Source: an uncultured Ruminococcus sp.
GTDB taxonomy: Bacteria > Bacillota > Clostridia > Oscillospirales > CAG-272
Reading direction: 5' to 3'
Length of the DNA: 41,925 nt
Assembly: GCA_964474245.1 (NCBI GenBank)
Contig: CAYYRY010000002.1
Location: forward strand, 2,340 to 44,264
Position numbers and translations under genes: made by a program. The notes below the pieces were generated by a model that worked only from the letters and a program-made list of their open reading frames with translations, did not search any database and was not told the DNA's origin. Numbering within the stretch: position 1 is the stretch's first letter; each line of letters starts with the position of its first letter. Of the stretch, positions 21,398 through 40,980 are shown one piece after another.

Positions 21398-21423
21398 ATA
21401 AGTAATATATAAGGAAAATTTTT

Positions 21424-22986: not shown

Positions 22987-23015
22987 TTGACAAATCATGT
23001 AAAATACTGTAGAAT
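22987..23015 (+). promoter_or_regulatory. Promoter of the accessory cluster (TTGACA-17-TAGAAT), with a second TGtTATAAT at 22954-22962
   Basis: TTGACA lies at 22987-22992 and TAGAAT at 23010-23015, with a 17-nt spacer. An upstream extended -10 element is at 22954-22962. Both overlap a repeated AAATCATGT motif. Confidence 0.55.
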
Positions 23016-23121: not shown

Positions 23122-25188
23122 ATGAAAAGTAATAAAACCAAGATCTGTTCGATTTTTCTGGCAGTTTTGATGCTTCTCGGCTGTGTAATCACCGTCAACG
23201 GAGCTGCAGAACACGCCAATAACAGATATAATGTTGTATTCGTAGTGGATGCCAGCGGTTCTATGTATTCAACAGACCCTGAGGATCTGAGATTCAATGC
23301 AATCAATCTCTTCATAGACCTTTTGGCTGAAACGGGAAACTATCTCGGAGGAGTTGTATTTGCGTCTGAGATAGAGGCAAAGCAGGAGCTCGCTGCCATA
23401 AACAGCCGTGGCGATAAGGATACGATCGCCAATATGCTTACTTCTATAAAAACCGAGGAGTGGACCAATACGGGTGATGCTCTTAATGCTGCAGTGGATA
23501 TCGTAGAAGGCAGCAAGAATGATCTTCCTTCTGTAATCGTGTTCCTCTGCGACGGTAAGACTGAGCTGCCTGACGATAAGGATACAGAGCTGTCTCTTGA
23601 CAAAAAGGCTGAAGCGATTCAGCGAGCAAGAGAGGGAGGTATCCCGATTTACTCAGTATGTCTCAATGCAAACCATAATGCTGACGTTTCTGAGATGGAG
23701 CAGATCTCCAAGGCTACCGGCGGTGAGTTCCGCGAGGTAAATGACGCTGCTGACCTTGTTGATGTATTCAATGCATTCTATAACTTTATCTACGGTACTG
23801 CTACAACAAAGCTCGTGGACGAAGTATTCCCCGCAAACGGAATAGTTGAAAAGGAATTTAAAGTTCCCGGTATAGGCGTAGAAGAAGTTAATATAGTTAT
23901 ATATGGAAGTGTTGCTTCTCTTGACGTCTACCGCCCTGACGGTAAAAAGAGTGAATGTCAGGGAAATAGCGGTGGTGATGAAGGAAATGCAGTAATAAGC
24001 ACTGTCAAGATCACTGACATCCAGGCAGGTACGTGGAAAATAGTAACAAGCGGAGTTCCCGGTGATCAGGTAAAGATCAACATGGTCTTCAATACTGATC
24101 TGAAGGTTGATCTTGACGTGAACAATTCCGGTGTCGGTTCATCCACGGAAGAAGACGTTACTTTCAAGGCTTCTCTCAGCTCCGGCGGCAAAACTGCTTC
24201 TACCGAGGAAGATTATTACGGCTTTTCCGCTAAGCTTCACGTGCTCAATCACCTTGAAGAGGAGCTTGACGTTATCGATATGCCTCTTAACGGTGACCGC
24301 TTTGAGCTGACACGTAAGTTTGACGAGGGTACATATAAGTTTAAGGTTACGGTATCGGGCTTCGATATCACAAAGGAGTCTGCTGTAAGCAATCCATTCA
24401 GAGTAGTAACCGAAATTCCCGAACCCGAATCAGGCGAGAGCATTGAAGACGTGAAGGATGAACTCTTCGCAAACTCTGCTCCCGTTGCAAATGCGAGCAA
24501 GGTTGAAGAGATAGTTTACATCTGGCCTTTCGTTGATTCTTCATTCAGTATCGAGCTTTCAACTCTTGCCACCGATGCAGAAGACAGCACTCTTGATTAT
24601 AAGATCGTTTCCAGCTCATTCATGGAAGGCGATTATGAAATCACCCCCGAAGGTGTACTCACCATTAACCATTTCAGCCTGTCTAAAGGAGCCTTCACCA
24701 TAAAGGCAGTGGACTCCGGAGGACTTTCCTGCGACGTTGAGATCGTAGTGATAAGCCGTAACGTTGGCCTCATGGCACTTATCGGTATCGGTACGGCGGC
24801 GATTATTACCCTTGCGGTGCTCGGCATAATGCTCTATATCCTTCTCAATAAGAGATTCATGGGTGCCTGCTACGTAACTAAGTTTGACGCAGACGGCAAC
24901 TATTACGAGGAAGTAAAGCGCGAAAAGGGTCGCGGTCGTATCCCGCTTTCCGCGTTTGGTATCGGCAATACCGGATTTGACGCTTCCAAGTGCTACTTCC
25001 AGGCGACAGGTAAGGGTCACGTTTACTTCATTACCAATAAGAATGCATACGGTAACGGTATGATCGGTAAGAAGTTTAAGATCGACGGCAGCGGATACGA
25101 TACGGATATTACCGTTGAGCAGTTTGCTCAGTCCGGAATCCGTGTTAAATTCGTAAGCCGACTCAATAATACAAACTTCACGTTCTGA
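23122..25188 (+). CDS. Exported vWA (MIDAS) domain protein with beta-rich ectodomain, single TM anchor and 113-aa cytoplasmic tail domain
   Basis: A GGGAGG RBS precedes the start, and there is a signal peptide. The MIDAS motif DASGS lies at nt 23248-23262, with downstream TNTGDAL and LCDGK. The TM segment is at about nt 24763-24846 and the tail at 24847-25185. Confidence 0.85.
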   Translation: MKSNKTKICSIFLAVLMLLGCVITVNGAAEHANNRYNVVFVVDASGSMYSTDPEDLRFNAINLFIDLLAETGNYLGGVVFASEIEAKQELAAINSRGDKDTIANMLTSIKTEEWTNTGDALNAAVDIVEGSKNDLPSVIVFLCDGKTELPDDKDTELSLDKKAEAIQRAREGGIPIYSVCLNANHNADVSEMEQISKATGGEFREVNDAADLVDVFNAFYNFIYGTATTKLVDEVFPANGIVEKEFKVPGIGVEEVNIVIYGSVASLDVYRPDGKKSECQGNSGGDEGNAVISTVKITDIQAGTWKIVTSGVPGDQVKINMVFNTDLKVDLDVNNSGVGSSTEEDVTFKASLSSGGKTASTEEDYYGFSAKLHVLNHLEEELDVIDMPLNGDRFELTRKFDEGTYKFKVTVSGFDITKESAVSNPFRVVTEIPEPESGESIEDVKDELFANSAPVANASKVEEIVYIWPFVDSSFSIELSTLATDAEDSTLDYKIVSSSFMEGDYEITPEGVLTINHFSLSKGAFTIKAVDSGGLSCDVEIVVISRNVGLMALIGIGTAAIITLAVLGIMLYILLNKRFMGACYVTKFDADGNYYEEVKREKGRGRIPLSAFGIGNTGFDASKCYFQATGKGHVYFITNKNAYGNGMIGKKFKIDGSGYDTDITVEQFAQSGIRVKFVSRLNNTNFTF

Positions 25189-25230: not shown

Positions 25231-25665
25231 ATGGAGCTTACTTTGATTATCGGATCTCTTGCATTACTGACGATCGTTATCGGTGTTGTGATTGCGGTGT
25301 CGGTGTACCGTGCAGATTCCGGTGGGAGATATATCTGTGAATGCTGTGTAAGCAGATGTGATGCAGAAGGTAAGACAAGTGAAGAAGTCAGACTGAAGGG
25401 AAAGGGCAAGTGCGTTAAGCTTTCAAAGTTCCGTCTTGGGAAAACCGAGCTCGACGAATGCAACTGCCGTTTCATGGCGACGGACGGAGACTTTGCTTGG
25501 TTTGTTTCAGACAAGAAAGTATTTGTTAACGGAACCTATGTAAATAAGATAAAGCTTAGCTGCGACGGATATCCCGTTGAGGTAAAGAAGGAACCGTCTT
25601 CGAAGGAGTGTATCTGTGTAAGATACATACGCAACTCAGGATGGACACAAAATTTTAATTTGTAA
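25231..25665 (+). CDS. Small N-terminally anchored membrane protein whose cytoplasmic domain is paralogous to the vWA protein tail
   Basis: An AGGAG RBS precedes the start, and there is an N-terminal TM segment (LIIGSLALLTIVIGVVIAVSV). The domain aligns position by position with 24847-25185 (see finding). Confidence 0.65.
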   Translation: MELTLIIGSLALLTIVIGVVIAVSVYRADSGGRYICECCVSRCDAEGKTSEEVRLKGKGKCVKLSKFRLGKTELDECNCRFMATDGDFAWFVSDKKVFVNGTYVNKIKLSCDGYPVEVKKEPSSKECICVRYIRNSGWTQNFNL

Positions 25666-25741: not shown

Positions 25742-28700
25742 ATGTACCAGAAACTTTTGCTTAAAAATGATGGCGGTATCATTGATATTGCTCAGCAGTC
25801 CGAACAGGACAACTGTGCCGTTGTTTGTATCGGTCTCGGCGGTACCGGTGTAGACTGTCTTAAGACACTCAAGGCTAAGATCTATAACAGAGTACGTCCC
25901 GATGATCCCAATGCGGCTGTTCCCAAGTATTCTCACATTAAGTTCCTCGCTGTGGATACTGATAAGACCGGCTTGGAGAAGAGCAATGCGAAAGGCTCGG
26001 ATATCACAAAGATCAACATGGACAACGAGTTCTTTGATCTGTCCTATCCCGGAGATATCAGCAACTTCTTTAAGGCTAACGAAGGCGTTCTTGAGAACAG
26101 ACCCCATAACAAGGAATGGCTGAGACACCAGGATATCAACGTTCTTTCCGCGAAGGCAGGTGCGGGCGGTGTGCGTCAGCTCGGCAGATATCTGCTTATG
26201 GAAAAGGCCACAGACTTTGTATCCAAGGTAAGTAATCTTGTAAATCAGGCAAAGAGCGGTCTTACCAACCCCAAGACCTACATACACGTTTTCAGCGGCA
26301 TTTCCGGCGGTACCGGTGCCGGAACCTTCCTCGACGTATGCTATCTCATCCGTCAGGCACTGACCAACGATGATACAGACAGCTTCATTCTCGGCTACTT
26401 CTTCCTTCCCGACGTTAATATTGCAAACAATCTCGACAAGCAGACAGAGGCATACGTAAAGGTTAACGGATACGCTTCTCTCCAGGACCTTGACTACTGC
26501 ATGAACTTTGAGCGCAACGGTGACAAATGGTCACAGGTTTATAACGGTATCGGTCTTGTTGAAAGTCAGATGCCTCCCGTTGATATCTGCCATCTGATAA
26601 GCGCAAGAGATACAGCAGGTAACGTTATTCCCGGTGCATATAAGTATTCAATGAACGTTGTTACCGATTACTTTATGGACTTCGTTGTTAGGGTCAGCAA
26701 CAACTTCACCATGGAATCTCACATCGCCAACTATACAAATAAGAAGGCAATGATCAACAAGGAATTCGGTGCTACTTATGAGTACTGTGTTCTCGGTGCC
26801 TCCGCTGCGACCCTTCCCTTTAAGGAGGTTCTCACATACCTTGCTTCAGAGATGTTCGGCAAGTTCTCAGGTGTTCAGGACATAGTTCCCGGAAATGCAG
26901 GAACAGATGCATTTATCGCGGCAAACGGTCTTAAATATGACACTCTGTTTGCTCAGCTTGTACAGAGAGCCGATATGTCATTCCCCCTTCCCGACGTTAA
27001 GTGGGGTGACGCAAAGAATAACGACAACCTCACCGTTACGTACTTCACAGACCTTAAGGCAAAGGCTGAGGGTGTTATCGAGAGCAACTATTCAGCAATG
27101 ATCAAGGATATGGAAGGCTACGAGCCTACTGAAGGCAACGTTGATGCATCCAAATCCGTTATTACAAAAATCTATTCTGCACTCAGACTCGTTGCTGCAG
27201 ATCCTCAGAAGGGTCCCTTCTATGCGGCACACCTGCTCCGCAGCACCAGCACAAAGGACCTTATTGCCATTGTTGACGGATATATTGAAGAGGTACAGAA
27301 AAAGTATTCCCAGGAGAACATTCAGGAAGACAGACTCCGTCCCGAGTGGGAAGCATCCCAGACAGATTTCTTCAATAATGCAAGCTGGTTAAACGGCGGC
27401 GGAAAGTACGACAGATACCGCAACGCTACACGTAACCTTATCCTCCATTATACAAAGCTCACTGCATTCCAGAAGATGAAGGACTTCCTTGAAAGACTCC
27501 GCAAGCAGCTTGTAGACCTTGCCGATAACTTCATGGACGTTTTCAGAAACGTAATGAAATCCCTCATCGAAACCTTTGATGCAAACAAGCACTTCCTTGA
27601 GGAGCTTCCCGAAACAACCAACGGATATGAGTTCCCTCTTGCTACTATCAGTCAGCTTAAGGATACCCTTGACCTTACAATCAAGGAAATGGATATTTCC
27701 TCCAAGGCAACTGACTTCCTTAAGATGATGCTCAGCAAAGAAGGAGTCAAGGCTTGGATCAACAGCAATGAAAACGAGATCTACCGTGTAGTCAATAAGT
27801 ACTTCACAACTCTGTTTGCTGAGTACTCAAACAAGACAATGACAAGCTACCTCCAGGATAAGTATCACACCACCAATATGGATCAGCTTGTTATGGAGAT
27901 CCGCAATGACATTATGAATAAGCTTGACCAGAACGCAAATCCCATGTTCTGGACATCCACAGGTTACTCTATTTCAACAGCATCCCATATCGGATACGTA
28001 ACATTCCCCAACGTTTCTACTGAGGTTGATCTTGCTGCTCAGCAGCTTGCTGCATCCAAGCAGACAGGTGAGCTTACCGTAAGAAACAGCACTATTCAGG
28101 ACAGAATTTCCATTATGCGCTGTCTTGTCGGTGTTCCTCTGTTCGGTTATCAGGGTCTCCTTCAGTATGAGGACTCTTCAATCGGAAGCCCCATCATCGG
28201 TAAGCATCTCTATGAGGGTAAGCTCTATACAAACGATGAAGGTAAGAGCGCAACAGGACGTGACTGGAGATTCCTTCCCTCCCCCGTGCCGCTCAGCAAG
28301 ATGAACGCCAGCAACAACAAGGTACTCAGAGATAAGGCAGAAGCTGCTAAGGAAATTTATGAGCTTGCCGAAAAGAAGAATATCATAGCTCAAACTGCTC
28401 CTGATAACTACGGTATCTTTGTAATCAGCGCCGACTTTATGAAGAAGATATACGACGCACGTGATGCTGCTAACGGAAAGACCAAGGTTGAACAGCTTGA
28501 GGCTATCGCTGCAATTAAGGAGCTCATGGAAAGCATTGAGTACGAGCCTAAGAAGGTCGCTATCCCCAATGACGGTGCTACCTCACTTCCTGAGATGAAT
28601 AAGCGAATTATCAGAATCGACCACTTTGCATCATCAATCAAGCTTCAGGAAATGGTAAAAGCTGAAGTTGCAAAGTTCGAAGAGATCGACAAGATCATCG

Positions 28701-29137
28701 CTGAACTTGAGCCTAAGGAAGACAAGGATCTTGTCTCTTACCAGAACGGTATCTTTACCGGTGTTATCAAGATCACAGGTCCCGTAGTTAAGGTTGAAAA
28801 TGAATTCGGTGAGGAAACAGAGCTTTCCGCACCTGCTCATAAGCCTTGCGGTGCGATCCCGCTTTATCAGGCATTCCTCAACTTCAAGAAGCTTGACGCT
28901 GACACCCGCGCATACGTTGCGGAAGAGGCACAGAAGATTCTTGACGTATATCCTCTCAGCGACGATGCTGTAAAGGCGTGCAAGGTTGTATGGGCTCAGC
29001 TTAAGAACATTAAGCTGTTCGTTCAGACTGCTACAAAGATCTGTCCTCATGAGGTTGCAGACCTTAAGAAGTTCCTTCCTGAGCTTAAGGATGCACTTCA
29101 GGTATTTGGTATGACTTATTTTATTGACCTTGAATAA
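25742..29137 (+). CDS. Giant tubulin/FtsZ-like GTPase (Tubulin_2-type), 1131 aa
   Basis: AGGAG RBS. A T1-like loop CIGLGGTG lies at nt 25832-25849, and the tubulin signature SGGTGAG (within HVFSGISGGTGAGTFLDV) lies at nt 26306-26323. A long, mostly helical extension of about 800 aa follows. Confidence 0.8.
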   Translation: MYQKLLLKNDGGIIDIAQQSEQDNCAVVCIGLGGTGVDCLKTLKAKIYNRVRPDDPNAAVPKYSHIKFLAVDTDKTGLEKSNAKGSDITKINMDNEFFDLSYPGDISNFFKANEGVLENRPHNKEWLRHQDINVLSAKAGAGGVRQLGRYLLMEKATDFVSKVSNLVNQAKSGLTNPKTYIHVFSGISGGTGAGTFLDVCYLIRQALTNDDTDSFILGYFFLPDVNIANNLDKQTEAYVKVNGYASLQDLDYCMNFERNGDKWSQVYNGIGLVESQMPPVDICHLISARDTAGNVIPGAYKYSMNVVTDYFMDFVVRVSNNFTMESHIANYTNKKAMINKEFGATYEYCVLGASAATLPFKEVLTYLASEMFGKFSGVQDIVPGNAGTDAFIAANGLKYDTLFAQLVQRADMSFPLPDVKWGDAKNNDNLTVTYFTDLKAKAEGVIESNYSAMIKDMEGYEPTEGNVDASKSVITKIYSALRLVAADPQKGPFYAAHLLRSTSTKDLIAIVDGYIEEVQKKYSQENIQEDRLRPEWEASQTDFFNNASWLNGGGKYDRYRNATRNLILHYTKLTAFQKMKDFLERLRKQLVDLADNFMDVFRNVMKSLIETFDANKHFLEELPETTNGYEFPLATISQLKDTLDLTIKEMDISSKATDFLKMMLSKEGVKAWINSNENEIYRVVNKYFTTLFAEYSNKTMTSYLQDKYHTTNMDQLVMEIRNDIMNKLDQNANPMFWTSTGYSISTASHIGYVTFPNVSTEVDLAAQQLAASKQTGELTVRNSTIQDRISIMRCLVGVPLFGYQGLLQYEDSSIGSPIIGKHLYEGKLYTNDEGKSATGRDWRFLPSPVPLSKMNASNNKVLRDKAEAAKEIYELAEKKNIIAQTAPDNYGIFVISADFMKKIYDARDAANGKTKVEQLEAIAAIKELMESIEYEPKKVAIPNDGATSLPEMNKRIIRIDHFASSIKLQEMVKAEVAKFEEIDKIIAELEPKEDKDLVSYQNGIFTGVIKITGPVVKVENEFGEETELSAPAHKPCGAIPLYQAFLNFKKLDADTRAYVAEEAQKILDVYPLSDDAVKACKVVWAQLKNIKLFVQTATKICPHEVADLKKFLPELKDALQVFGMTYFIDLE

Positions 29138-29223: not shown

Positions 29224-31134
29224 ATGAAAACTGTAAAGGAATTAATTCATGCTTCTACCGCATTGCTTACAAATAACGGTATAGGAAGCTCTAATTATTC
29301 AAAGCCCAAATATCCTACCTGCGTTGTTTATTTCGGCAAGCGCAGTCAGCTTTATCATGATGAGCTGATCGGAGATGTTACCCGCGGTTGGGGCGGAAAC
29401 ACCGATTACGTAAAGTTTTATGTGATTGAGGATGTGGAAAGCAAGGTTCTGAAAAACGTACTTAGCGGAGAAGAGCTTTCCGATGAGGACGTCCGCGCGC
29501 AGATCACCGGACTGCTTTCTTCTCAGGATGTGTTCTCCGATATGAGATATGTGTCATTATACTGTGTTATGGATACCACGGATATCAAGGATGTTTCTGA
29601 ATTTGAAAAGTGGTATATGTCAGTGCAATACCTTGAGAAGCTCATAGGTGTTCCGACAACATCAATGCTGATGCTCATACTGAATCAGTCTCTGAATCTG
29701 GCTGAAAATGCGAAGCTTATCACGAAAAAACTCGGAGAGCTTTATGCTTCACCGGAGCTCGGCAGAGAAAATACACATATATATGACTCTGTATTTATTC
29801 TCAGTAACAGACTTAAGGACGGCTCCTTCAAAATATACGACCCGCAGATGGACGGCAACGCTTCTTCCACTCTTTCTTATAAGAACTTTAATCTGCTCGG
29901 CAACGTGATATTGCTCTCAAATACGAGGGATCCTGATTTTGATTCGAGAAAGCACAAGCTTTACGGGAACGATAAGCCTGCGGTCATTGCTTCATACCGT
30001 TATTTGCAGAAGCCTATGAAAGAGATCGTAATGATCGCACTGTCAAGTATCCTCGAGAAGCTTAAAGAGATGATCCTTACATATAATATTGATGCAGATA
30101 TACTTGGAAAGGCACTGAATATTACCTCAGGCCGTTCAAAGCTTCATGAGGAGATCTATACTTCGATCAAGGAGTATCTCCCCAATAATGATTTTATCAA
30201 TTATCTCCCCGGTAAGAGAGAGTCCGTCGGCAGTTTTGTTGACGTAGACCGTTCATCCTATGGATGTCTTCAGATGTTCATTGAGCAGAACCATCTGAAG
30301 ATCGTTAAAGAAAAGCTTGCATCAAACAAAGAATACGAGTACAGGACCATAGTATCCATGCTTTCAAGTAATCTTAATGCTGCTCAGCTTGTTAACGGAA
30401 TTCATGCAGACGTCAGAAAGACCACATACAGTAATGCAGAAATGGGTCTTGCCAACACTGACAGAATGAATGTTTTCCAGAGCATAGACATACAGGTAAA
30501 GCAGATGATCGCAGATGAGCTCAAGGTTCTGATAGACAAAGCCATATCTCAGTCGATTGATAAAGCAACTATGTGTATGGATGCATTCAGAGCACTGTGC
30601 GTTGAGTTCGAAAATGCATATGCGGTTGGAGAAGAAGGTACCCGCAGAAATCTGAAGAGCTTTTACGTTGATAAGATCAACAGATACTACAGTGATATCA
30701 ACAAGGTAAAGGCACTGCTTGTAAAGCTTCTTAACATTGATAACGGTAAGACGGAAATGCTTCAGGTATTAAACGACGAGCTTGTTCGTTTGTTTGAAAG
30801 CGATGCCGTATATAAGTATTCATATGCTCAGGAGCTTATGGCGCGTCTCGGAAGAGCAGGAAATGAACGTGAGATTCAGGAGCAGATCGCAAAGGAGCTT
30901 ATTGAAGGTCTTGAGAACCGCACCTGTTACTACACTAATTCCACGTATCACGGAAGAGTTATGGAAGCATATATGCTCAACACCTCCGATAATGAGGACA
31001 GCTTGACAGTTAAATACCTCAACGCCCGTTCCGATGAAGGTGGAATTACAAGAACGTTCTTTAACACCTGCAGCAACGATGCTGCTGAATCCATGTGGTT
31101 CTATCATTGTACACTTGATAACCTGTTAATGTAA
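29224..31134 (+). CDS. Unknown 636-aa protein, possibly a degenerate (nucleotide-loop-less) paralogue of the tubulin-like GTPase
   Basis: A GAGGAG RBS precedes the ATG at 29224; the track start at 29179 is a TTG inside a hairpin. The weak collinear resemblance is VVYFGKRS vs VVCIGLGGTG, LYCVMDTTD vs HVFSGISGGTG, and SVFILSNRLKDGS vs ICHLISARDTAGN. Confidence 0.55.
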   Translation: MKTVKELIHASTALLTNNGIGSSNYSKPKYPTCVVYFGKRSQLYHDELIGDVTRGWGGNTDYVKFYVIEDVESKVLKNVLSGEELSDEDVRAQITGLLSSQDVFSDMRYVSLYCVMDTTDIKDVSEFEKWYMSVQYLEKLIGVPTTSMLMLILNQSLNLAENAKLITKKLGELYASPELGRENTHIYDSVFILSNRLKDGSFKIYDPQMDGNASSTLSYKNFNLLGNVILLSNTRDPDFDSRKHKLYGNDKPAVIASYRYLQKPMKEIVMIALSSILEKLKEMILTYNIDADILGKALNITSGRSKLHEEIYTSIKEYLPNNDFINYLPGKRESVGSFVDVDRSSYGCLQMFIEQNHLKIVKEKLASNKEYEYRTIVSMLSSNLNAAQLVNGIHADVRKTTYSNAEMGLANTDRMNVFQSIDIQVKQMIADELKVLIDKAISQSIDKATMCMDAFRALCVEFENAYAVGEEGTRRNLKSFYVDKINRYYSDINKVKALLVKLLNIDNGKTEMLQVLNDELVRLFESDAVYKYSYAQELMARLGRAGNEREIQEQIAKELIEGLENRTCYYTNSTYHGRVMEAYMLNTSDNEDSLTVKYLNARSDEGGITRTFFNTCSNDAAESMWFYHCTLDNLLM

Positions 31135-31165
31135 TTGCAGAGCCGTAGGCTGAATGGAGATTGAT

Positions 31166-31819
31166 ATGATGAACGTAAAATTAGTTGATTTTGATAACGA
31201 ACATTACGTTGCAAGTGTTACTCATACCGAAGGTACACTTCAATGGAGATCAGCAGGTAATACTCATCAGATAATCATTCGCGGTGAGTTTGGTGCTGAT
31301 ATTAATTTCGGAGATAAAGAGAAGACGGTCCTTGAACAGTACACAAAGGAGCAGTTCGAAGCGGAAAGAGAGACCAATTATGCCGATGAGCTGCACCTTA
31401 CCATAGTAAAAAAAGGTACGTTTGTGGATAGTTATAACGTAACGGTAACCCCCGCTACGTATGCTGTAATCGGATGCAGCTATGAGCCCGAGACAAATAC
31501 CATTACAGTATATATTCCCACACAGGATTGCCTGTACCAGTGTAAAGTATTCTCACAGGTATCAGTAAGGATCACGCAGGAACCCATAAAGAAAAAGTTT
31601 CTCGGAATTTTCGGTAAGGATGAGAAGCCGTATTATACAATACATATTCCTCCGATCCCCGGATACGTTGACGGAAGTCTTAAGTATACTTTCGACGGCT
31701 GCAAGTATGAGTATCCTATAACCAAGGCAATGCTTGGTCAGAACGTAAGTGTTCCCGCATATAACGGTAAAGCTCCTAAGATAAATGTTTCGGAGAAGAA
31801 CGGCTATAAGATCATATAA
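31166..31819 (+). CDS. Unknown beta-rich 217-aa protein
   Basis: A GGAG lies 6 nt upstream of the ATG at 31166. The gene is tightly packed in the operon. No family was recognised. Confidence 0.55.
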   Translation: MMNVKLVDFDNEHYVASVTHTEGTLQWRSAGNTHQIIIRGEFGADINFGDKEKTVLEQYTKEQFEAERETNYADELHLTIVKKGTFVDSYNVTVTPATYAVIGCSYEPETNTITVYIPTQDCLYQCKVFSQVSVRITQEPIKKKFLGIFGKDEKPYYTIHIPPIPGYVDGSLKYTFDGCKYEYPITKAMLGQNVSVPAYNGKAPKINVSEKNGYKII

Positions 31820-31836: not shown

Positions 31837-33408
31837 ATGCCCGGAATAGAAATAACCTGCCCTTACTGTTTTTCTAAGTTCGCAGATGATGCAGTTCATT
31901 TCCGAATGGAAACAGTATTTTCTGAAGAAGACCTTGACCCTAAGGGTGAAGGCAGAGACCGTCAGGAAGTTGCAACTGACAGAAGATTTAAAAGCGAAGA
32001 AGTAAAAGCTCAGCTTGCTGAGTATGATCTCAGAGAAAAGTTCGTACCTCATAATGATGAGCCGTACGAAGAATTCTGGAAGACCTATAACGGTACTACA
32101 GAAAAGACGTCTGTCAGCCTTGACGGAAAAACAGCAAAGGTAATGCCTTACCACAGACCTGTGTTCAGCCCCAAATATCCTGATCACAGACAGTATTTCG
32201 GAAAGCCGAATAGTGATAGAGATGTAATAAATGAAAACGGCATGACATATGCTGCATATGACTGTTTCGGTAAGCAGACTCAGCGCAGAGTATGTCCCCA
32301 TTGTCATAATCCTCTGCCGGGTGCATACGGAAAGCATCCCGTGATGTTTATTTCCATAATCGGTATTACCCGTGCCGGTAAGACAGTATATCTGTCACAG
32401 CTTTGTAAATACATATCCCGTCAGCTTGCAGACTTCAATATTTCTGTAACACCTACCTCCATTTATGCAAGAGAATATCTTGAAGATAACCCTGTAGTTA
32501 TGGGCAAAGAGCTTCCCAAAGGTACTCCTAAGGAGCAGCTTCTCCAGCCTCTTTGCTTCGACTTATCATACACCAAAAACGGAATAAATGAGAACAGAAC
32601 TGTCGTATTCTACGATATTGCCGGTGAGAACTGTGATGACATTGCTCTCGAAAAGATCCATAGCTTCGGTCCCTTTATTGAGCACTCCGACGGTATTATC
32701 CTCCTTATCGACCCCGAACAGTTCAAGACCTCAAGTGAGGCAGGAGAACCTACTAAGGTTCTTGATACCATCCACGCATTGTTTGCAAACAAGTCCTCTG
32801 AAGCTGTAAGAAAGCTTCCTCTTGCGATATGCGTATCCAAGGGTGACAAGGTTGCAAACGAAATGATCGGTTCTCCTCTTTACGACGTAGAGAGAATAAT
32901 GGACAGAAACGGCGAGTATGTGACCAAGTTCAATGCACAGAGCTATAACGTCATTCATGACGGAATGAAGCGATTCGTTCAGAATATTGCCAACCCTCTT
33001 TCGGTTACACTCAATACCAAATACGATAACTTCAATTACTTCATCATGTCTGCTATCGGTACCGATACAAAGAAGCTCGAAGGCACCAACCTTGATACTC
33101 CTGCAGGTCCCGTAGTACCTAAGAGAATAATCGAGCCTCTTGTATGGATGCTTCATAAATTTGATTTTATCGGCTGTGAAGGAGAGCTTCATGAGCCTAA
33201 GGACTGGATCTGTGACTGCGACGGTACTAAGCACCGTATCCGTGTAAACCAGTACTGCCCTGTATGTAAGCTGAACAAGGAGAGGACCTGGAAGTGCCCC
33301 GGATGTAAAACTGAAGGTCAAACAGGTGAATGGTGTAATCAGAAGGGCTGTAAGTACAACCGTTTCGGCAAAAAAAGAACTATTTGGGATTCGTTTAAGA
33401 AAAAATAA
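31837..33408 (+). CDS. Zn-ribbon-flanked P-loop GTPase (TRAFAC-like G1/G3/G4 motifs)
   Basis: CPYC (aa 8-11) and CPHC (aa 153-156) lie upstream. G1 GITRAGKT is at nt 32362-32385, G3 DIAG at nt 32614-32625 and G4-like SKGD at nt 32836-32847. The C-terminus is Cys-rich (CDCD...CPVC...CPGC...C..KGC). Confidence 0.75.
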   Translation: MPGIEITCPYCFSKFADDAVHFRMETVFSEEDLDPKGEGRDRQEVATDRRFKSEEVKAQLAEYDLREKFVPHNDEPYEEFWKTYNGTTEKTSVSLDGKTAKVMPYHRPVFSPKYPDHRQYFGKPNSDRDVINENGMTYAAYDCFGKQTQRRVCPHCHNPLPGAYGKHPVMFISIIGITRAGKTVYLSQLCKYISRQLADFNISVTPTSIYAREYLEDNPVVMGKELPKGTPKEQLLQPLCFDLSYTKNGINENRTVVFYDIAGENCDDIALEKIHSFGPFIEHSDGIILLIDPEQFKTSSEAGEPTKVLDTIHALFANKSSEAVRKLPLAICVSKGDKVANEMIGSPLYDVERIMDRNGEYVTKFNAQSYNVIHDGMKRFVQNIANPLSVTLNTKYDNFNYFIMSAIGTDTKKLEGTNLDTPAGPVVPKRIIEPLVWMLHKFDFIGCEGELHEPKDWICDCDGTKHRIRVNQYCPVCKLNKERTWKCPGCKTEGQTGEWCNQKGCKYNRFGKKRTIWDSFKKK

Positions 33409-33460: not shown

Positions 33461-35824
33461 ATGAAATATCAGCAGATATGTTATACAAGACTGAATGATA
33501 TCGTAGGCGGAACGCAGGTAGGATTTACAACCTTTAATTCTTCTCCTGATATACCTGAAGATGTTGTCGAGTATTTCAAAGGAACACAAAGTGGTAACCA
33601 GGGCGAGAAATGGCCGATAGACAAAGGTCAGGCTGTTGTCTGGCAGTTTGTTGCAGACGAAAAAAGCAAAACCGTATTTAATACAAGAGTTCTCTTCGAT
33701 ACAGCACTAAAAGACGATAAAGACAAAGACAGTCGCGGAACCATATTCTCTCACTCATTCATATTTCCCATGGAGGATTTCATAAGAGATCCCCAAAGCG
33801 TGCTGAACGTGGATGACAGCAACTATGGTTTTGACCGTAAAAGCACAGAGACTATTCCGCAGGAGCTTGTAAGAACCGAAACTCTTTCTCTTGAGGAATG
33901 CGTTGAATCTTTAGGTATGGATTCAAAAAGTTACTCAAAGCTTGTTTATGCTGTATATAAGTTCCTGACCGATAAAGCCAATAAACCTCTTCATATTATC
34001 TGCGATAATTCAAATGAGAGTATCATCAGGTACATGGTATGTATTTATGCGGCACTTCCGTTTGAATTCAGAAAGAAAATAACTTTCCAAAGCAGCAATA
34101 TCGGAAGAATTCACACTATCAACAGAACGATAATCTTTGAAAACGAATTAAGTAATTACAATGATTATTATATTGAGCCTGTTTCCTCCGAAAACAACTT
34201 TATGACCACCGCTGTGGAGAAAAAGATATCCAAGTACGATTTTATAAAAATCGTGCCTGAAAATTATGCATCAGGTCAGAATTTTGATGAATTATTCAAA
34301 GCCATAGCAAATAAGCTCGCTCTGTTTGACAGTGCAGCGACCACAAAACTGGAGCTTTATAAGATTGCGTACAATTTGCTTCTGGATGACACCAATGACG
34401 GTTCGGTAATGACACCGGAAGATCTCCAGGATCGCTTATATGAATTGCTTCTTTCGGTAGACCATCCGTTTATTGACAGACAGATCCAGTTTGTGCTCGG
34501 TGATATCATAGAGTACAAGTTTGATCTCAGTGATGCCATCGCAGAGGTGCTCGGCCGTAAGCTTGCAGTAACAGAGGACAGAGATCTTCTCGAATGCGGT
34601 TACAGATACAACTTCGGCAGAATCAGCAGAATGGATATTGATGAAGGCGTAAAGTATCTGAATGACGTATACGGAGACCGCACGTCTGAGGCATTCATTC
34701 AGATAAGGTCACTTCTCAATGAAGACGATAAGGGCAAAGAAATTCTGTCACGATTCTATACCAAGTACGTTGCCGCTGAAGTCGTAGCTGACAGAGATAA
34801 TATAATCGCTTTCTATGACGAGACCAAGGATCTTGCAGACAGAAGTAAGGTCGTGCTGTCCATAGAGAATTTTGTCCGTGTATATCTGAAGGCAGAGGTA
34901 GAGCTTACCGATGACCCCAAAGCGCTGCTTGCTGAAGCAGAATATATACTGTCTCAGGTTCTTGCAGATCAGCCGGATATGTGTGCAAAGATCTTAGAAT
35001 ATGTAAAGCTTCTATATTGGAATAACCTTAAGTTTGAGAACATAAGCTTTGCTCCCGACAGCGGTTATGAAGGCGTGCGTCTCGATAATAATAAGAAGTG
35101 CAATATAGTGTTCACTCTTATCGATATCTTCGAATACTTCAAGAATTCAGATATTGTAAGTCTTGCTCCCGTTGTAAACACATTCAAGCCCTCTGAGCTT
35201 GGATTAGGACAGTCCGAGTATGCCGTCGCAATTCAGAAGCTTCATAATGAATGTATTGCATATATCAATGCATACGGAGATTCAAATGCGGATATGGACA
35301 GATGGATACTCGTATCATTGCCGCTTGTTTACATTAAGAAAAGCCCGGCATCATTCTTAATTGACAACAATATCGTATCCGTATGCGAAAACTTCGAGGA
35401 AGCCTACCTTAACTCTGCTTTCCTGAGCAGCGAAAACAATCACGAGCTGTTCAAGGGATGGATGGAGCAGTATGCCGATGCAAAGCTTGAAAACTCTGAG
35501 ATCGCTGCAGAGATTCTCAAAACGATCAAGATGAACGAGAAGAGAATTGAAAATGAGAGACGTCAGGCGGCAAAAGAGTACAAGAAGGCAGAGAAGGAAA
35601 GAGCAAGAGAAGAAAAAGAGCTTCTGAAAGCACAGAAAAAAGCTGAAGCTGATGCTGAAAAGCTTGAAAAAGAGCGTCAGAAGGCTGTTCGTAAAAATGC
35701 TGAGTCAGATCCTTTCAATACAGAGGACACTACTGAAAAGCCGAAGTCGATATTCAATAAGCTGTTTGGCGGTTTAAAACAGAAAAAGAATAACGACGAC
35801 GATTTCGGAGGAAATGAAGATTGA
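33461..35824 (+). CDS. 787-aa protein with GAP1-like (GTPase-associated protein) N-terminus and a K/E-rich coiled-coil tail
   Basis: The N-terminal pattern MKYQQICYTR...GG.QVGFTTFNSS resembles, from memory, the QL.YTS...G..GFQ start of GTPase-associated proteins. The C-terminus is a charged heptad-like segment (ERRQAAKEYKKAEKERAREEKELLKAQKKAEADAEKLEKERQKA). Confidence 0.5.
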   Translation: MKYQQICYTRLNDIVGGTQVGFTTFNSSPDIPEDVVEYFKGTQSGNQGEKWPIDKGQAVVWQFVADEKSKTVFNTRVLFDTALKDDKDKDSRGTIFSHSFIFPMEDFIRDPQSVLNVDDSNYGFDRKSTETIPQELVRTETLSLEECVESLGMDSKSYSKLVYAVYKFLTDKANKPLHIICDNSNESIIRYMVCIYAALPFEFRKKITFQSSNIGRIHTINRTIIFENELSNYNDYYIEPVSSENNFMTTAVEKKISKYDFIKIVPENYASGQNFDELFKAIANKLALFDSAATTKLELYKIAYNLLLDDTNDGSVMTPEDLQDRLYELLLSVDHPFIDRQIQFVLGDIIEYKFDLSDAIAEVLGRKLAVTEDRDLLECGYRYNFGRISRMDIDEGVKYLNDVYGDRTSEAFIQIRSLLNEDDKGKEILSRFYTKYVAAEVVADRDNIIAFYDETKDLADRSKVVLSIENFVRVYLKAEVELTDDPKALLAEAEYILSQVLADQPDMCAKILEYVKLLYWNNLKFENISFAPDSGYEGVRLDNNKKCNIVFTLIDIFEYFKNSDIVSLAPVVNTFKPSELGLGQSEYAVAIQKLHNECIAYINAYGDSNADMDRWILVSLPLVYIKKSPASFLIDNNIVSVCENFEEAYLNSAFLSSENNHELFKGWMEQYADAKLENSEIAAEILKTIKMNEKRIENERRQAAKEYKKAEKERAREEKELLKAQKKAEADAEKLEKERQKAVRKNAESDPFNTEDTTEKPKSIFNKLFGGLKQKKNNDDDFGGNED

Positions 35825-37287
35825 ACGTAGATAAATTGATGGAGACCGGCAATGTGTATTACAGTCTCTGCAGTGGGTATAACTTCTATGTTTTGGCATC
35901 ACGTCAAAAGTATAAGATATTCGGAAAAGAAAAGAACGTTATACAGCACATAAAAACAGGTGAGTATTTTTATGTTTCTGAGTTTCCTGAAGATCTGAAT
36001 CGTACTTTTGACCTGAATTACTGGGTCAAACTTATTAGAAATCCTGTTGACTTAAAACATTTCATATGGCCGGTAGACGTAATTGAGTGGGATGCGACAG
36101 ACAAAAATAACGTGAAATACGCCCTTGTATTCCCGAATCGTGCGCTTCCTGTTTATGATGATTTTGCAAATACTTTAAAAAACGGTATGGATGTCAATTT
36201 TGACGTTCCGTGGGTGAGAAAGATCATCAAGGATTTTCTTGATGCTTGGTGTAATTTTCATTCCAAGGGATATGCATATCATGCATTTTCCAAAGGAAAT
36301 ATGTTCTATAACCGTGATAAAATGGAGGTTATGTTCGATTTCAGCTTCCTGACTCAAAGAACAGACACCCTCTATGAGAAAAAGTTTATCAATCCGGAAT
36401 ATATTACCCCCGACTATGCGGATCCGTATTACTATTATAAGCATAATGCTAATCAAATGGACCTCGCATCGGACTATTATACCGTAGCAGTATTTTTGTT
36501 CAAGCTGTTGATCGGACGTCTTCCGTATGAGGGTAAGGTATTTGATAACGTTGCGAATACTACCGAAACAGAGCATAATACCTGGATAAAAAGATATCAT
36601 AAGAATTCGTATTTTATCTTTGATACGAAAGATGATACTAACCGTATCGGCGGTGAATTCGGATTTGCTGATGAGTTGGTATACGAAAACCGTTGGTTGG
36701 GACTTTCGGAAAACGTCAGAAACATGTTCCATAACGTATTCCAGACAGCCAATGCTCTCAGAACGACAGAAGAATTGTACTATTATACTCCGAAGCAGTG
36801 GCTGGATGCATTGTTTGGAGAGACGGATGATGTTCCCCTTCACTACAGAGAAGCTCAGCTTGAGGAGGTAACGAAAATTTCAGTGCCTCTGAAGACCTCG
36901 GTACCAAGCAAAGTCAGTGTTCCGAAAAAGCCTGAGATCCTCAAAAAGGTAGCTCCCGTTTCCCCTGCTAAAAAAACGTCTGCGGAACCCGAAGTAAAGG
37001 TTACTGCCAGCCCTGTAGCTCCTAAGCCTCAGCCCAAGGCTCAGCCTGCGTCCACCTCAAACGAGTCGGAACCTAAGCAGACAGAAGTGAAGTTTACTCC
37101 GGTATTTCCTAAATCGGATACTTCATCTGAAGTTGATGCCCGCCGTAAGCTGATTTTCGATCTTAAATCAAAATTAGATGCTGTGAAAACGCCTGCTCCG
37201 ATGACCGAGGAAGGCAAGGCGCTTTTGACGAAAATGGTAACAATTCTTAATACGGCTATAAAATCCGGTAAAATTGCTAATAAGTAA
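35821..37287 (+). CDS. Protein-kinase-fold protein lacking the catalytic Asp (predicted pseudokinase) with a P/K/A/S-rich disordered tail
   Basis: The start overlaps the upstream stop (TTGA); the alternative ATG is at 35839. FHSKGYAYHAFSKGNMFY (nt 36277-36300) takes the place of H.DLKP.N. FDFS (36334-36345) takes the place of DFG, and DLASDYYTVAVFLFKLLIGRLPYEG resembles subdomain IX-X. Confidence 0.6.
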   Translation: MNVDKLMETGNVYYSLCSGYNFYVLASRQKYKIFGKEKNVIQHIKTGEYFYVSEFPEDLNRTFDLNYWVKLIRNPVDLKHFIWPVDVIEWDATDKNNVKYALVFPNRALPVYDDFANTLKNGMDVNFDVPWVRKIIKDFLDAWCNFHSKGYAYHAFSKGNMFYNRDKMEVMFDFSFLTQRTDTLYEKKFINPEYITPDYADPYYYYKHNANQMDLASDYYTVAVFLFKLLIGRLPYEGKVFDNVANTTETEHNTWIKRYHKNSYFIFDTKDDTNRIGGEFGFADELVYENRWLGLSENVRNMFHNVFQTANALRTTEELYYYTPKQWLDALFGETDDVPLHYREAQLEEVTKISVPLKTSVPSKVSVPKKPEILKKVAPVSPAKKTSAEPEVKVTASPVAPKPQPKAQPASTSNESEPKQTEVKFTPVFPKSDTSSEVDARRKLIFDLKSKLDAVKTPAPMTEEGKALLTKMVTILNTAIKSGKIANK

Positions 37288-37296: not shown

Positions 37297-37379
37297 CTTG
37301 TTTACATAATAAACAAGAGAGGTATGACTGACAACAAAATTTTAAGGTGTTTATGAGACTGCTTCAGGGTAGTCTCATA
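37297..37379 (+). other. Two perfect hairpins in the 134-nt gap after the kinase-like gene
   Basis: CTTGTTTA-CATAA-TAAACAAG lies at 37297-37317 and TATGAGACT-(10 nt)-AGTCTCATA at 37352-37379. Neither has a T-tail. Confidence 0.5.
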
Positions 37380-37421
37380 GGCACAACGAAAATACTGCCA
37401 AAGTGCAGAATGGAGAGAAAT

Positions 37422-38537
37422 ATGGATTTCGGAGCTATAACCAACCGAATTACAAAAAACCGAATTGGGAATTACGAAGCCAAAGACGGTTCTGCAGTAA
37501 GTGTCCAGCTGAGAAATTTGATAGCACAGCATGGCTACGATATATTCAAGGATAAGACTGCTCTGACAGAAGAAATACAGAAGTTCACGCTGTCAAACAC
37601 ACTGAAGAGTCAGCTTACCCTGGTTTTCAGTTGCAGTACGCTTTCTGATTTTATTCTCAATTCCAAGTCAGACCTGAATATGGTCGATATCGATAACGTT
37701 GTTCACAGTGTTGTATCCTCCACAGGATTGACTTACGACTGTGCCATTTCAATAATCGCTGATACTTTTGATGCCTGCGGTTTGAGATTCGCAATAGAAT
37801 ACGGTCCCAAATTGGTAGACGGTACCGTGAAGAACGGACTCTCAGCAATGATGCCTTCGGGCGTGGCTGAAGCTGAGATCAAAAAGACTCAGGAAATGTA
37901 CAACAAGTTTAATTCCACCTACGCTAACGGTATTCAGATAGCGCAGAAGGAACAGGCAAAGAATGAAGCCACAGCGGTCGTAAACGCAATGAACCGTCTG
38001 TGTTCCGCAGGGCTTGCGGAAGGCTATTATTTGCTTGGCAGATGCTATGCTTTTGGAGAGTGTTGTACCAACGTGGATTCCAAAAAGGCACTTGAATATA
38101 TGAAGATAGCTGCAGATAAGGGCCACGTAGCAGCAGCCGGATATCTTGGTGATATGTATTATGAGGGAGATGCGTTTACCAGAGACTATACCCTTGCTCA
38201 TCATTACTATACCCGTCCCGGCACCAAGGCGCTCGGTAAAAAGCAGCAGGATGCCCTGAAGGATATCTATAAACAGGGTGGTGCAAACAAACTTACCATG
38301 ATATTCTCCGGTATCGTGTTTGCACTTATGATCGCTTTTGTTGTGTTCTTCCACGAAGGCATCTTCTCAGGCTCAAGCAGACTGGTAGTAGGCATTATTA
38401 TGCTTGTTTTGTCACTGGTGCCTCACGTAATTGTGATTCAATACAGTATACTTAATAAATATAACGGTATGCGTTGGCTTCTTATGATACAGTTCTTTAT
38501 CTGGGCACTGTATGCGTTTATTTTGGTTCTTGCATAA
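37422..38537 (+). CDS. Sel1-like-repeat protein with three C-terminal TM helices
   Basis: I prefer the ATG at 37422, which has GGAGAG upstream. Sel1-type repeats are AGLAEGYYLLGRCYAFGE...ALEYMKIAADKGHVAAAGYLGDMYYEG...LAHHYY. Three hydrophobic helices lie at the C-terminus. Confidence 0.7.
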   Translation: MDFGAITNRITKNRIGNYEAKDGSAVSVQLRNLIAQHGYDIFKDKTALTEEIQKFTLSNTLKSQLTLVFSCSTLSDFILNSKSDLNMVDIDNVVHSVVSSTGLTYDCAISIIADTFDACGLRFAIEYGPKLVDGTVKNGLSAMMPSGVAEAEIKKTQEMYNKFNSTYANGIQIAQKEQAKNEATAVVNAMNRLCSAGLAEGYYLLGRCYAFGECCTNVDSKKALEYMKIAADKGHVAAAGYLGDMYYEGDAFTRDYTLAHHYYTRPGTKALGKKQQDALKDIYKQGGANKLTMIFSGIVFALMIAFVVFFHEGIFSGSSRLVVGIIMLVLSLVPHVIVIQYSILNKYNGMRWLLMIQFFIWALYAFILVLA

Positions 38538-40224: not shown

Positions 40225-40767
40225 ATGAAAAGGATAATTAAAATTACGGCTGTAATTCTTATTCTTGCTGTTATGGCAACATTGATGGCGGGATGCGAAG
40301 CTGATGAGAAAAAGCCCGGACCCGAAGTCGGAAAATGGCACGCGGAAGTAAAGATCAAGGATCTCGGAAGCTCCATGTCTGATGAAGATAAGGCTATTCT
40401 TGCAATGCTTGCGGGTAATATCATGTTTGAGGTAGACGTAGAGTTTGCCGAAAACGGTACGTTTTCGTATTTCATGAATACAGATAAGCTTGAATCAGCC
40501 GTATCCAATTCGTTTACAACTATTTTAGGCTTTATGCTCAATTTCGACATATCGCTGTTTGTAGATAGGATCGTTGAAGCGGTGTTGCAGGATATGATAA
40601 AAACGTCCAATTATGCATTTTCCGGTGAATATGCAACGTCTGAAAGTGAACTGATCACTGCCACCGATTCATCCGGCTTCAACATATACTTTAAAGTATA
40701 TGGCGGTAGCTTGGTACAGGTAAATGATAACGGTGATAAGATACTGACCTTTACAAAAGCTGAATAG
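40225..40767 (+). CDS. Putative lipoprotein, unknown function
   Basis: A signal peptide ends in the lipobox LMAGC. GAGAG lies upstream of the ATG. Confidence 0.65.
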   Translation: MKRIIKITAVILILAVMATLMAGCEADEKKPGPEVGKWHAEVKIKDLGSSMSDEDKAILAMLAGNIMFEVDVEFAENGTFSYFMNTDKLESAVSNSFTTILGFMLNFDISLFVDRIVEAVLQDMIKTSNYAFSGEYATSESELITATDSSGFNIYFKVYGGSLVQVNDNGDKILTFTKAE

Positions 40768-40851: not shown

Positions 40852-40980
40852 ATGAAGAAGAAAATCGACCACTTTGTCCGTTCTCCCCGTTTGCAGGAGA
40901 TAGTAAAGCATGAGCTTGACAAGATAAACGAGATAGAACAGATTCTTAAAGACCTCGAGGATGCTGACGATATCATTTAA
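40852..40980 (+). CDS. Possible 42-aa acidic helical micro-protein (below the track cut-off)
   Basis: My own translation gives MKKKIDHFVRSPRLQEIVKHELDKINEIEQILKDLEDADDII. The ATG lies only 4 nt after a TGgTATAAT element (40839-40847), so the mRNA would be near-leaderless. No SD sequence is present. Confidence 0.25.
   Translation: MKKKIDHFVRSPRLQEIVKHELDKINEIEQILKDLEDADDII

Follow-up and report, generated by a model that had tools for sequence, protein, structure and literature searches.

The window analyzed in this work is a stretch of 41,925 nucleotides from an uncultured Ruminococcus sp. (contig CAYYRY010000002.1), and the element under study is a large open reading frame (ORF) at positions 25742-29137, whose product of 1131 amino acids (aa) belongs to the FtsZl1/Tubulin_2 family of tubulin and FtsZ relatives. 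The gene stands in a conserved operon together with genes for von Willebrand factor A (vWA), GTPase and membrane proteins. An earlier reading made from the sequence alone (hereafter the sequence-only reading) had described the product as a nucleotide-binding, possibly polymerising, tubulin-like module fused to a large scaffold. The gene and its parts are listed below, with residue numbers of the 1131-aa protein and with structural elements taken from an AlphaFold2 (AF2) model.

25742..29137, + strand: FtsZl1/Tubulin_2 gene, long "A" paralog, stop codon included (ORF list, translation)
25814..26881, + strand: tubulin/FtsZ-fold nucleotide-binding region, residues 25-380, S1 to about H9 (Pfam, order of elements in the model, Foldseek)
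25832..25849, + strand: T1 loop GLGGTG, residues 31-36, following S1 (direct reading)
26159..26188, + strand: T3-like loop GAGGVRQLGR, residues 140-149 (motif table; family pattern GAGGVRQxGR)
26297..26323, + strand: T4 signature loop G-ISGGTGAG, residues 186-194, after S4 (direct reading; family form GGGTG(A/S)G)
26393..26419, + strand: T5-like segment GYFFLPDVN, residues 218-226, after S5 (motif table)
26636..26749, + strand: H7-like helix 299-315, variable loop 316-323 in the T7 position and H8-like helix 324-336 (DSSP on the model)
27260..27604, + strand: long consecutive helices 507-546 and 552-621 within the helical region 381-747 (AF2; predicted local distance difference test score, pLDDT, about 90)
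27983..28291, + strand: conserved alpha/beta module, residues 748-850 (alignment of homologs, AF2 model)
28292..29134, + strand: C-terminal accessory modules, residues 851-990 and 991-1131, mostly helical (gap analysis of the alignment, length classes)

The ORF opens with an ATG codon preceded by an AGGAG ribosome-binding site, and these features together with its translation support the sequence-only call of a real gene. Residues 28-373 match the Pfam family Tubulin_2 (PF13809) along profile positions 1-352 of 356, at E 3.8e-60 and 204.5 bits (cut-off 27), which is far above chance level; the sequence-only reading had itself singled out this profile for comparison. The canonical profile PF00091 (18.6 bits against 33) and the ftsZ profile TIGR00065 (13.3 bits against 295.2) stayed below their thresholds. 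Pfam matched neither FtsZ_C nor Tubulin_C in the 1131-aa protein, including constructs from which the insertion had been deleted.

FtsZl1 was defined by Makarova and Koonin in 2010 (Biol Direct 5:33, PMC2875224) as proteins with an FtsZ-like domain at the N-terminus, an elongated coiled coil and a helical C-terminal domain, encoded in operons with a vWA-domain protein, a divergent P-loop GTPase, often a protein kinase, and membrane proteins. These authors found the T6-H7 segment and the C-terminal domain not alignable, proposed a membrane-remodelling machine, and considered that FtsZl1 might not form filaments (PMC2875224). All FtsZl1 traits that we tested are present here, namely the PF13809 score, the architecture with its length of about 1000 aa or more, the T1 and T4 loops and the operon with vWA, GTPase and kinase genes. 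Other likenesses include the lack of a T6-H7-T7 segment recognisable by sequence, the vWA, divergent P-loop GTPase and kinase-like genes in the window operon, and the coexistence of the system with a normal chromosome context in which it does not replace FtsZ. The differences are not essential; for instance, an OmpA partner is missing from the window operon, which a Gram-positive-type host would lead one to expect. We regard it as settled that the 1131-aa protein is a distant relative of tubulin and FtsZ within the FtsZl1/Tubulin_2 family. As a typical representative, it adds to a family already known from computational work of 2010 and 2020 and does not found a new class.

The sequence-only reading had called the class essentially devoid of experimental characterisation. 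This held in so far as the literature searched contained no experimental work on the FtsZl1/Tubulin_2 family or on DO-GTPase systems, but the class itself had already been recognised as FtsZl1, with its own Pfam family (PMC2875224, PMC7159879). A 2023 phylogeny used Tubulin_2 sequences as an outgroup only. The family is large, was first described 15 years ago and, within the tubulin superfamily, counts as one of the most divergent branches.

The full-length AF2 model was built from an alignment of 52 homologs (alignment A1; 33-64% identity) and reached a mean pLDDT of 89.9 and a predicted template modelling score (pTM) of 0.76. When compared with the PDB by Foldseek, it gave 75 matches at E<=1e-3; the best 50 of these 75 are all FtsZ, CetZ or tubulin at a probability of 1.00, with Staphylococcus aureus FtsZ (6kvq, E 4.9e-6) at the top. 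The alignments extend over about 345-365 columns, covering FtsZ chains of about 305-335 residues, with template modelling (TM) scores of about 0.5 normalised by target and sequence identities of 9-14%. This is the structural comparison that the sequence-only reading had proposed, and it bore out the tubulin placement. The tubulin/FtsZ GTPase-domain fold predicted by the model can be taken as settled. The likeness to FtsZ, CetZ and tubulin extends to the overall fold, the positions of T1, T3, T4 and T5, and the topology of the core helices. In the model, the H7-like (299-315) and H8-like (324-336) helices are followed by an S7-like strand (348-357) and an H9-like helix (360-380), which suggests that the tubulin core is kept more fully than could be aligned in the sequence analysis of 2010. 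Taken with the Tubulin_2 match, these predicted fold matches make the notion of a nucleotide-binding, possibly polymerising module on a large scaffold a reasonable one.

Sequence searches against solved structures, carried out both for the protein alone and for a profile of 53 sequences, retrieved no FtsZ or tubulin and returned coiled-coil noise (RGS5, CHMP1B) at E of at least 0.045. Such a result would suit an origin of the glycine motifs in a non-tubulin Rossmann-type domain, with an accidental resemblance to tubulin. That explanation is refuted by the strong Tubulin_2 match, by best PDB structure matches that belong exclusively to FtsZ, CetZ and tubulin, and by T1 to T5 loops in the correct order together with an FtsZ-like "DTD" motif in S2; we consider it hardly conceivable. 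No non-tubulin Rossmann family, which the sequence-only reading had named as the finding that would speak against its placement, appeared in the profile or structure search.

A divergent cell-division FtsZ, or a plasmid or phage segregation tubulin of the TubZ/PhuZ type, would share the predicted fold, and phage tubulin and FtsZ head the list of BFVD matches. However, the BFVD matches are weaker than those to FtsZ in the PDB and none reaches E 1e-3. There are also no division, segregation or phage genes around the 1131-aa gene. This context, the scores below threshold for TIGR00065 and PF00091 and the lack of a Pfam match to FtsZ_C or Tubulin_C effectively refute the segregation or division reading, which we rate as very improbable.

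Since hhalign of the N-terminal profile against the single E. coli FtsZ sequence gave no meaningful alignment, the loop equivalences to FtsZ were read manually against that sequence. Motifs were tabulated for 116 homologs, and the conservation figures refer to 145 family representatives at <=50% identity. Residues of the T1, T3, T4 and T5 loops are 85-98% conserved across these representatives, which argues for selection on nucleotide binding, and the 1131-aa protein would be expected to bind a nucleotide. In T1, residues G31, G33, G34, T35 and G36 are conserved at 91-96%. The following S2 strand carries the motif FLAVDTD, which resembles the "NTD" of FtsZ. The T3-like loop, with conserved R145, Q146 and R149 (93-96% for the loop), was likened by manual alignment to the E. 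coli FtsZ motif GLGAGANPEVGR (GAGANPEVGR). Residues G186, G189, G190, T191, G192 and G194 of T4 are conserved at 85-98%, while P223 and D224 of the T5-like segment reach 98% and 94%, respectively. The loops follow each other in the right order for tubulin/FtsZ. The sequence-only reading had picked out the strings CIGLGGTG and SGGTGAG, both of which are correct (residues 29-36 and 188-194), but the nucleotides that it quoted for them, 25832-25849 and 26306-26323, cover only GLGGTG (31-36) and GGTGAG (189-194) and so miss the 5' end of the strings by two codons and one codon.

Several features set the 1131-aa protein apart from FtsZ, CetZ and tubulin, including inserts between T1 and T4, a beta-hairpin at residues 259-275, about 750 extra residues, and the lack of an NxDxxD/E T7 motif and of a recognisable FtsZ_C or Tubulin_C domain. 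The hairpin (NGDxWxQxY; 26516-26566, + strand) lies between an H5-like helix and an S6-like strand and has no FtsZ counterpart; its Q265 and Y267 are conserved across the family at 90% and 97%. It could serve as a partner-binding or lattice surface.

The T7 position was located by the order of secondary-structure elements, between the H7-like helix, which carries the family motif AYxYAMNVV, and the H8-like helix. No canonical T7 loop (NxDxxD/E) was found there among the 145 representatives: residues 316-323 hold no conserved acidic residue, the loop varies in length (16-40 gaps per 145 sequences at positions 319-322, inserts of up to about 15 residues), and only H327 (60%) and N330 (76%) are moderately conserved around it. 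The sequence-only reading had likewise been unable to recognise a T7 synergy loop. As the loop in this position has no conserved acidic residue, canonical in-trans hydrolysis through T7 is unlikely; R145, Q146 and R149 of the T3 loop are candidate in-cis substitutes in any GTP hydrolysis.

Because the T7 loop for canonical longitudinal contacts and hydrolysis is missing, the protein might bind GTP without polymerising and act as a nucleotide-dependent dimer or scaffold, that is, as a switch and not as a filament. The variable T7-position loop agrees with this, packing in the lateral or longitudinal direction could be obstructed by the very large extension, and Makarova and Koonin doubted filament formation by FtsZl1 (PMC2875224). 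On the other hand, the H7- and H8-like helices and the S7-like strand are present in the model, and tandem or paired paralogs are the rule in related loci, which fits hetero-oligomers. TubZ and PhuZ are divergent tubulins that polymerise despite unusual interfaces. Overall, we hold a non-polymerising switch to be possible, though rather less probable than an assembling protein. GTP binding and assembly without a T7 loop, if true, would widen the knowledge of tubulin-type polymers.

The secondary structure of the model agrees with the estimate of the sequence-only reading that about 800 further, mostly helical residues follow the tubulin-like region. They form helical segments at residues 381-506, the two long helices, a helical bundle at 636-731 and, beyond the alpha/beta module, helical bundles on to residue 1125 with small beta elements near 880-890 and 1009-1029. 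The long helices 507-546 and 552-621 of the model are read as a probable antiparallel hairpin or stalk, in agreement with the coiled coil described for FtsZl1. The alpha/beta module is the best-conserved piece of the extension (mean majority frequency 0.52); it consists of strand 748-756, helix 760-771 and strands 779-783 and 788-798, and has invariant P756, R788, G820 and E825. Paralogs of about 1000 aa do not have the last module (991-1131), and many relatives among the representatives stop near residue 850, which suggests that residues 1-850 form the core and that the remainder consists of accessory modules.

The elements at 748-798 match the S8-H10-S9-S10 succession of FtsZ in order and spacing. 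By this predicted likeness, the helical region might be an insertion inside the tubulin C-terminal domain, with residues 748-798 supplying S8-H10-S9-S10. When residues 748-835 were tried as an FtsZ_C-like half-domain, an idea built on the order of secondary-structure elements alone, neither the segment nor an insertion-deleted construct gave a Pfam match. A still more speculative extension of this idea holds that a complete two-domain tubulin core is kept but divided by an inserted helical region of about 370 residues, that its C-terminal sheet is completed by residues 748-798, that it works as hetero-oligomers of A and B paralogs, and that it hydrolyses GTP through R145, Q146 and R149 of T3 in cis and not through T7 in trans. 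We consider this combination unlikely. If true, the split core and in-cis T3 would amount to a distinct mechanism of assembly and hydrolysis in the tubulin superfamily, used by the assembling effector of a membrane-triggered immune-like system.

The 1131-aa gene belongs to a same-strand (+) operon of at least 12 genes, which extends from about 23.0 kb to beyond 41.9 kb with short intergenic gaps. A terminator was found upstream of the gene cluster and none inside it. In addition to the 1131-aa gene, the following features make up this region.

22752-22787: strong terminator-like hairpin, 15 bp, after jag (consensus match only)
22987..23015, + strand: best promoter-like site TTGACA-17-TAGAAT, 11/12 (consensus match only)
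23122..25188, + strand: membrane vWA protein, 688 aa (Pfam VWA, E 5.5e-16)
25231..25665, + strand: 144-aa protein with an N-terminal transmembrane segment and a cytoplasmic domain (transmembrane scan)
29224..31134, + strand: conserved, fast-evolving protein of 636 aa (database gene call of 636 aa)
31154..31819, + strand: 221-aa protein without a family match in Pfam
31837..33408, + strand: DO-GTPase2, 523 aa (PF19993, E 5.1e-14, 52.9 bits against 27)
33461..35824, + strand: GTPase-associated protein 1 (GAP1), 787 aa, with a K/E-rich polar C-terminal tail (GAP1-M, PF20014)
35821..37287, + strand: kinase-like protein, 488 aa, with a low-complexity P/K/A-rich tail (Pkinase, 25.9 bits, under the cut-off of 31.7)
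37347..38537, + strand: Sel1-repeat protein with three C-terminal transmembrane segments (Pfam Sel1, E 6.7e-10; transmembrane scan)
38546..40162, + strand: polytopic membrane protein, about 14 transmembrane segments and a C-terminal soluble domain (transmembrane scan)
40225..40767, + strand: putative lipoprotein of 180 aa, signal peptide followed by Cys (sequence)
40852..40980, + strand: 42-aa ORF resembling residues 958-994 of the 1131-aa protein (BLASTP, E 7e-10, 49% identity)
41107..41925, + strand: second Tubulin_2 paralog, its first 273 aa visible before the window end cuts it off (BLASTP, frame translation)

Neither this operon context nor the second paralog had been mentioned in the sequence-only reading. 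Transmembrane segments or a lipoprotein signal occur in five of the operon products encoded in the window. By hydropathy, the vWA protein has a signal or transmembrane segment at residues 8-26, an extracellular vWA domain, a beta-rich region, a transmembrane segment at 553-571 and, in the cytoplasm, a tail of about 115 aa; the metal ion-dependent adhesion site (MIDAS) motif of its vWA domain is intact (DASGS...T...D for DxSxS...T...D). The adjoining 144-aa protein is a paralog of the transmembrane segment and tail of the vWA protein (24775-25185, + strand; BLASTP E 1e-21, 31% identity), and this tail domain is a candidate contact to cytoplasmic components. The tail domain has no family assignment and is Cys-rich in the 144-aa copy.

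DO-GTPase2 shows two N-terminal Cys-pair (zinc-ribbon-like) motifs, a Walker A motif GITRAGKT, the motifs DIAGE and SKGD, and a Cys-rich C-terminus. The GAP1-M match of the next gene product is just above its cut-off (E 1.2e-5, 25.9 bits against 24). In the kinase-like protein HAF stands where HRD is expected, so the protein is probably inactive, and from its sequence we take it to be probably a pseudokinase. The true start of the Sel1-repeat protein probably lies downstream of the listed GTG.

The 636-aa gene is listed with a TTG start at 29179 that has no ribosome-binding site, while the ATG at 29224 is preceded by GAGGA. Its product has neither a Pfam nor a PADLOC assignment. The AF2 model, from an alignment of 7 close homologs, is poor (pLDDT 62.6), and its best Foldseek match, the bacterial dynamin LeoA, is unconvincing (E 1.3e-3, TM-score 0.15, root mean square deviation 24 A). 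A test of whether it is a degenerate tubulin was negative, as BLASTP gave nothing and comparison of hidden Markov models with Tubulin_2 gave a probability of 0.3%; the protein was left unassigned.

Relatives of the 1131-aa protein are numerous. A word-indexed search found 1150 of them at E<1e-5, and most of the best 120 measure 1110-1170 aa and cover 93-100% of the query. An exhaustive profile search of 1.84 billion cluster representatives gave 5415 matches at E<=1e-3, 3051 at <=1e-10 and 874 at <=1e-30, the 5415 being cluster representatives at 50% identity; among the best 150, more than 100 match end to end. Genomes with matches include Oscillospiraceae, Lachnospiraceae, Butyrivibrio, Coriobacteriia/Olsenella, Bifidobacterium, Pseudolactococcus hodotermopsidis and Streptococcus suis, and many of them are metagenome-assembled genomes from termites, rumen and gut. 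The closest relative is 64% identical, so the window organism has no species-level match in the collections. Equivalent loci also occur in cultured strains, for example Butyrivibrio sp. AE2032, Bifidobacterium callimiconis, Streptococcus suis and Olsenella. The window locus adds little to hundreds of such loci; it is of value as a clean example that looks complete and whose promoter-proximal end is intact.

Synteny was assessed by tblastn of the window proteins against 81 related loci. The vWA gene adjoins the tubulin-like gene in 72 of the 81, and DO-GTPase is present in 68. The 636-aa protein was found at the matching position in 52 loci, GAP1 and the kinase-like protein in 39 each, Sel1 in 27, and the 221-aa protein, again at the matching position, in 25. 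The order vWA, tubulin-like, 636 aa, 221 aa, DO-GTPase2, GAP1, kinase-like and Sel1 is retained with the same spacing in dozens of loci and is shared across Clostridia, Coriobacteriia, Bifidobacterium and Streptococcus suis. A polytopic membrane protein occupies the matching position in three loci (L002, L005 and L083). L083, the closest complete relative, keeps an identical order up to and including the lipoprotein (180-aa gene) and a second tubulin-like gene of 972 aa. In L083 (13856-17818), that second gene is followed by two small genes, a 1320-aa protein with kinase and TPR domains and a faint NB-ARC domain, and a fragment of a type IV secretion system (T4SS) coupling protein. The system may extend well past the window end, near remnants of conjugative elements. 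TIR, PARG and T4SS coupling-protein genes were also seen near related loci.

The flanking rnpA, yidC and jag genes were never neighbours of the system in the related loci. Since yidC and jag adjoin it in none of the 81, the cassette moves between chromosomal sites. The tubulin-like protein is its best-conserved component; for example, identity in locus L001 is 50% for this protein and 23-44% for the others, and the accessory proteins diverge faster than the tubulin-like core across related loci. Two or three tubulin-like paralogs per locus are common, with up to three per genome and a patchy distribution.

Kaur, Burroughs, Iyer and Aravind (2020; eLife 9:e52696, PMC7159879) placed tubulin operons in their "GAP1-N2-type DO-GTPase-centric systems". 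In the firmicute version, two genes for tubulin plus coiled coil are accompanied by vWA proteins and by a GAP1 whose tail is polar, and the system was predicted to act in biological conflict through the regulated assembly of cytoskeleton-like complexes (PMC7159879). The window operon matches this firmicute tubulin theme of a predicted conflict system. It shares the succession of DO-GTPase2 and GAP1, two tubulin-domain genes with long helical C-termini, an extracellular vWA protein anchored by a transmembrane segment, a GTPase with two N-terminal zinc-ribbon-like motifs and the polar tail of GAP1. There are differences as well. The second vWA, fused to YtkA, was not found between 23.0 and 41.9 kb, where the window ends inside the system so that it could lie farther on, nor downstream in L083. 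A kinase-like gene belongs to the window operon; in the paper, active kinases are placed in a separate theme, that of actinobacteria.

On balance, we favour the view that the 1131-aa protein joins an FtsZl1/Tubulin_2 GTP-binding domain to a stalk and further modules, that its operon is one of the predicted conflict operons, and that it assembles at the membrane under the control of vWA and GTPase/GAP1 components. The signalling order that we infer would begin with the single-pass vWA protein, whose MIDAS site would bind a ligand outside the cell or in the envelope. The signal would be relayed inward by the cytoplasmic tail of this protein and by the adjoining tail-only paralog, and there DO-GTPase with GAP1 could provide a switch or threshold that depends on GTP. 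The next step would fall to the tubulin-like protein, probably joined by the paralog at the operon end: it would bind GTP and form a membrane-proximal oligomer or filament, whose helical stalks and C-terminal modules may recruit or space other components. Such a GTP-dependent assembly of hetero-oligomers or filaments near the membrane is in keeping with the pairing of paralogs, with the long stalk and with the H7/H8/S7/H9 core that is retained. A mobile or conflict role is hinted at by the variable flanks, the several paralogs per genome, the fast accessory genes, the probable pseudokinase, the gene fragments and the TIR, PARG and T4SS neighbours. The function of the vWA/DO-GTPase/GAP1 operon bears on a prominent prediction of bacterial immune-like systems.

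Several observations weigh against this membrane-assembly and conflict view. When the operon proteins were compared with PADLOC-DB 2.0, no defence model was found for the tubulin-like, vWA, DO-GTPase and GAP1 proteins; the only matches were weak ones to the kinase-fold PD-T4-6 (kinase-like protein, E 7.6e-6) and to Csn2 (E 7e-4). Because PADLOC has no model for the core proteins, a part in defence is no more than predicted. An evident toxic effector, for example a nuclease or a pore-former of known type, was not seen in the window. Without a canonical T7 loop, the polymerisation-coupled hydrolysis that is a hallmark of FtsZ and tubulin may be absent. The link to FtsZ and tubulin is carried by the Pfam family, the motifs and the predicted structure, given that the sequence-only comparison with solved structures was empty. 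Compared with the system of Kaur et al., Pfam gave no GAP1-N match to the window GAP1 even at E up to 5, and its N2 type follows from the DO-GTPase2 subtype and the tubulin context only. Pfam also detected no fibronectin type III (FNIII) repeats (FN3) in the operon products; candidates for this component are the 221-aa protein and, in the vWA protein, the beta-rich extracellular region. The literature searched contained no experiments on GTP binding, polymerisation or the biological role of any family member.

The same operon could instead encode a housekeeping or facultative machine for membrane remodelling or an envelope cytoskeleton, in which filaments act with vWA and membrane proteins and have no role in conflict. 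Membrane remodelling is what was first proposed for FtsZl1 operons containing genes for vWA, GTPase and membrane proteins (PMC2875224), and it would accommodate the five membrane or lipoprotein products, the lack of a known defence-system model for the core proteins, the absence of a visible classical toxic effector, and the position of the operon next to yidC and jag in a housekeeping region. However, this location is not conserved, with yidC and jag at none of the 81 loci, and the family is patchily distributed with up to three paralogs per genome. Fast accessory genes, fragments and a probable pseudokinase are traits of mobile conflict cassettes and not of core cell biology. We find such a non-conflict role, housekeeping or facultative, rather unlikely and retain the conflict-operon view.

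The second Tubulin_2 paralog at the window end aligns with residues 1-275 of the 1131-aa protein (BLASTP E 3e-71, 43% identity). Its T1 loop is intact, while T3 (GGNQLSPVRQSGRY) and T4 (GLCGKTGSG, with G190 replaced by K) are altered, and from these changes its nucleotide site may be impaired. The closest ortholog, P0066, retains GGTGSG; the loop degeneration in the second paralog is lineage-specific. Two diverged paralogs per operon recall, by analogy only, alpha/beta-tubulin and BtubA/B, which are pairs with non-equivalent nucleotide sites, and on that analogy the window paralogs might form an A/B heterodimer. The 42-aa ORF ahead of the second paralog represents either the fragment of a gene or a short, independent copy of a single helix pair from the C-terminus.

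Upstream of the operon lies a housekeeping block with tRNA-Glu(CTC) at 18175-18249, rpmH (44 aa) at 19133-19267, and rnpA, yidC and jag within 19393-22725. Blocks of this type are usually found near the replication origin. The count of DnaA boxes near rpmH and rnpA within the window is no higher than chance, with no oriC-type cluster. Two adjoining ORFs of 70 and 80 aa (18514-18886, + strand) are presumably a frameshifted four-helix-bundle "23S rRNA intervening-sequence protein".

In Pseudolactococcus hodotermopsidis (loci L002/L013, 2289-3437), a 382-aa ORF with only the N-terminal part of Tubulin_2 lies between the vWA gene and the full-length gene. A relation of the 144-aa window ORF to this short ORF, as its remnant at the matching position, was rejected in favour of its origin as a paralog of the vWA tail. 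Over 362 residues, the 382-aa product shares 72% identity with the window protein, and its full-length neighbour is 72% identical over the N-terminal 379 residues and 61% overall; the short ORF looks like a partial duplication.

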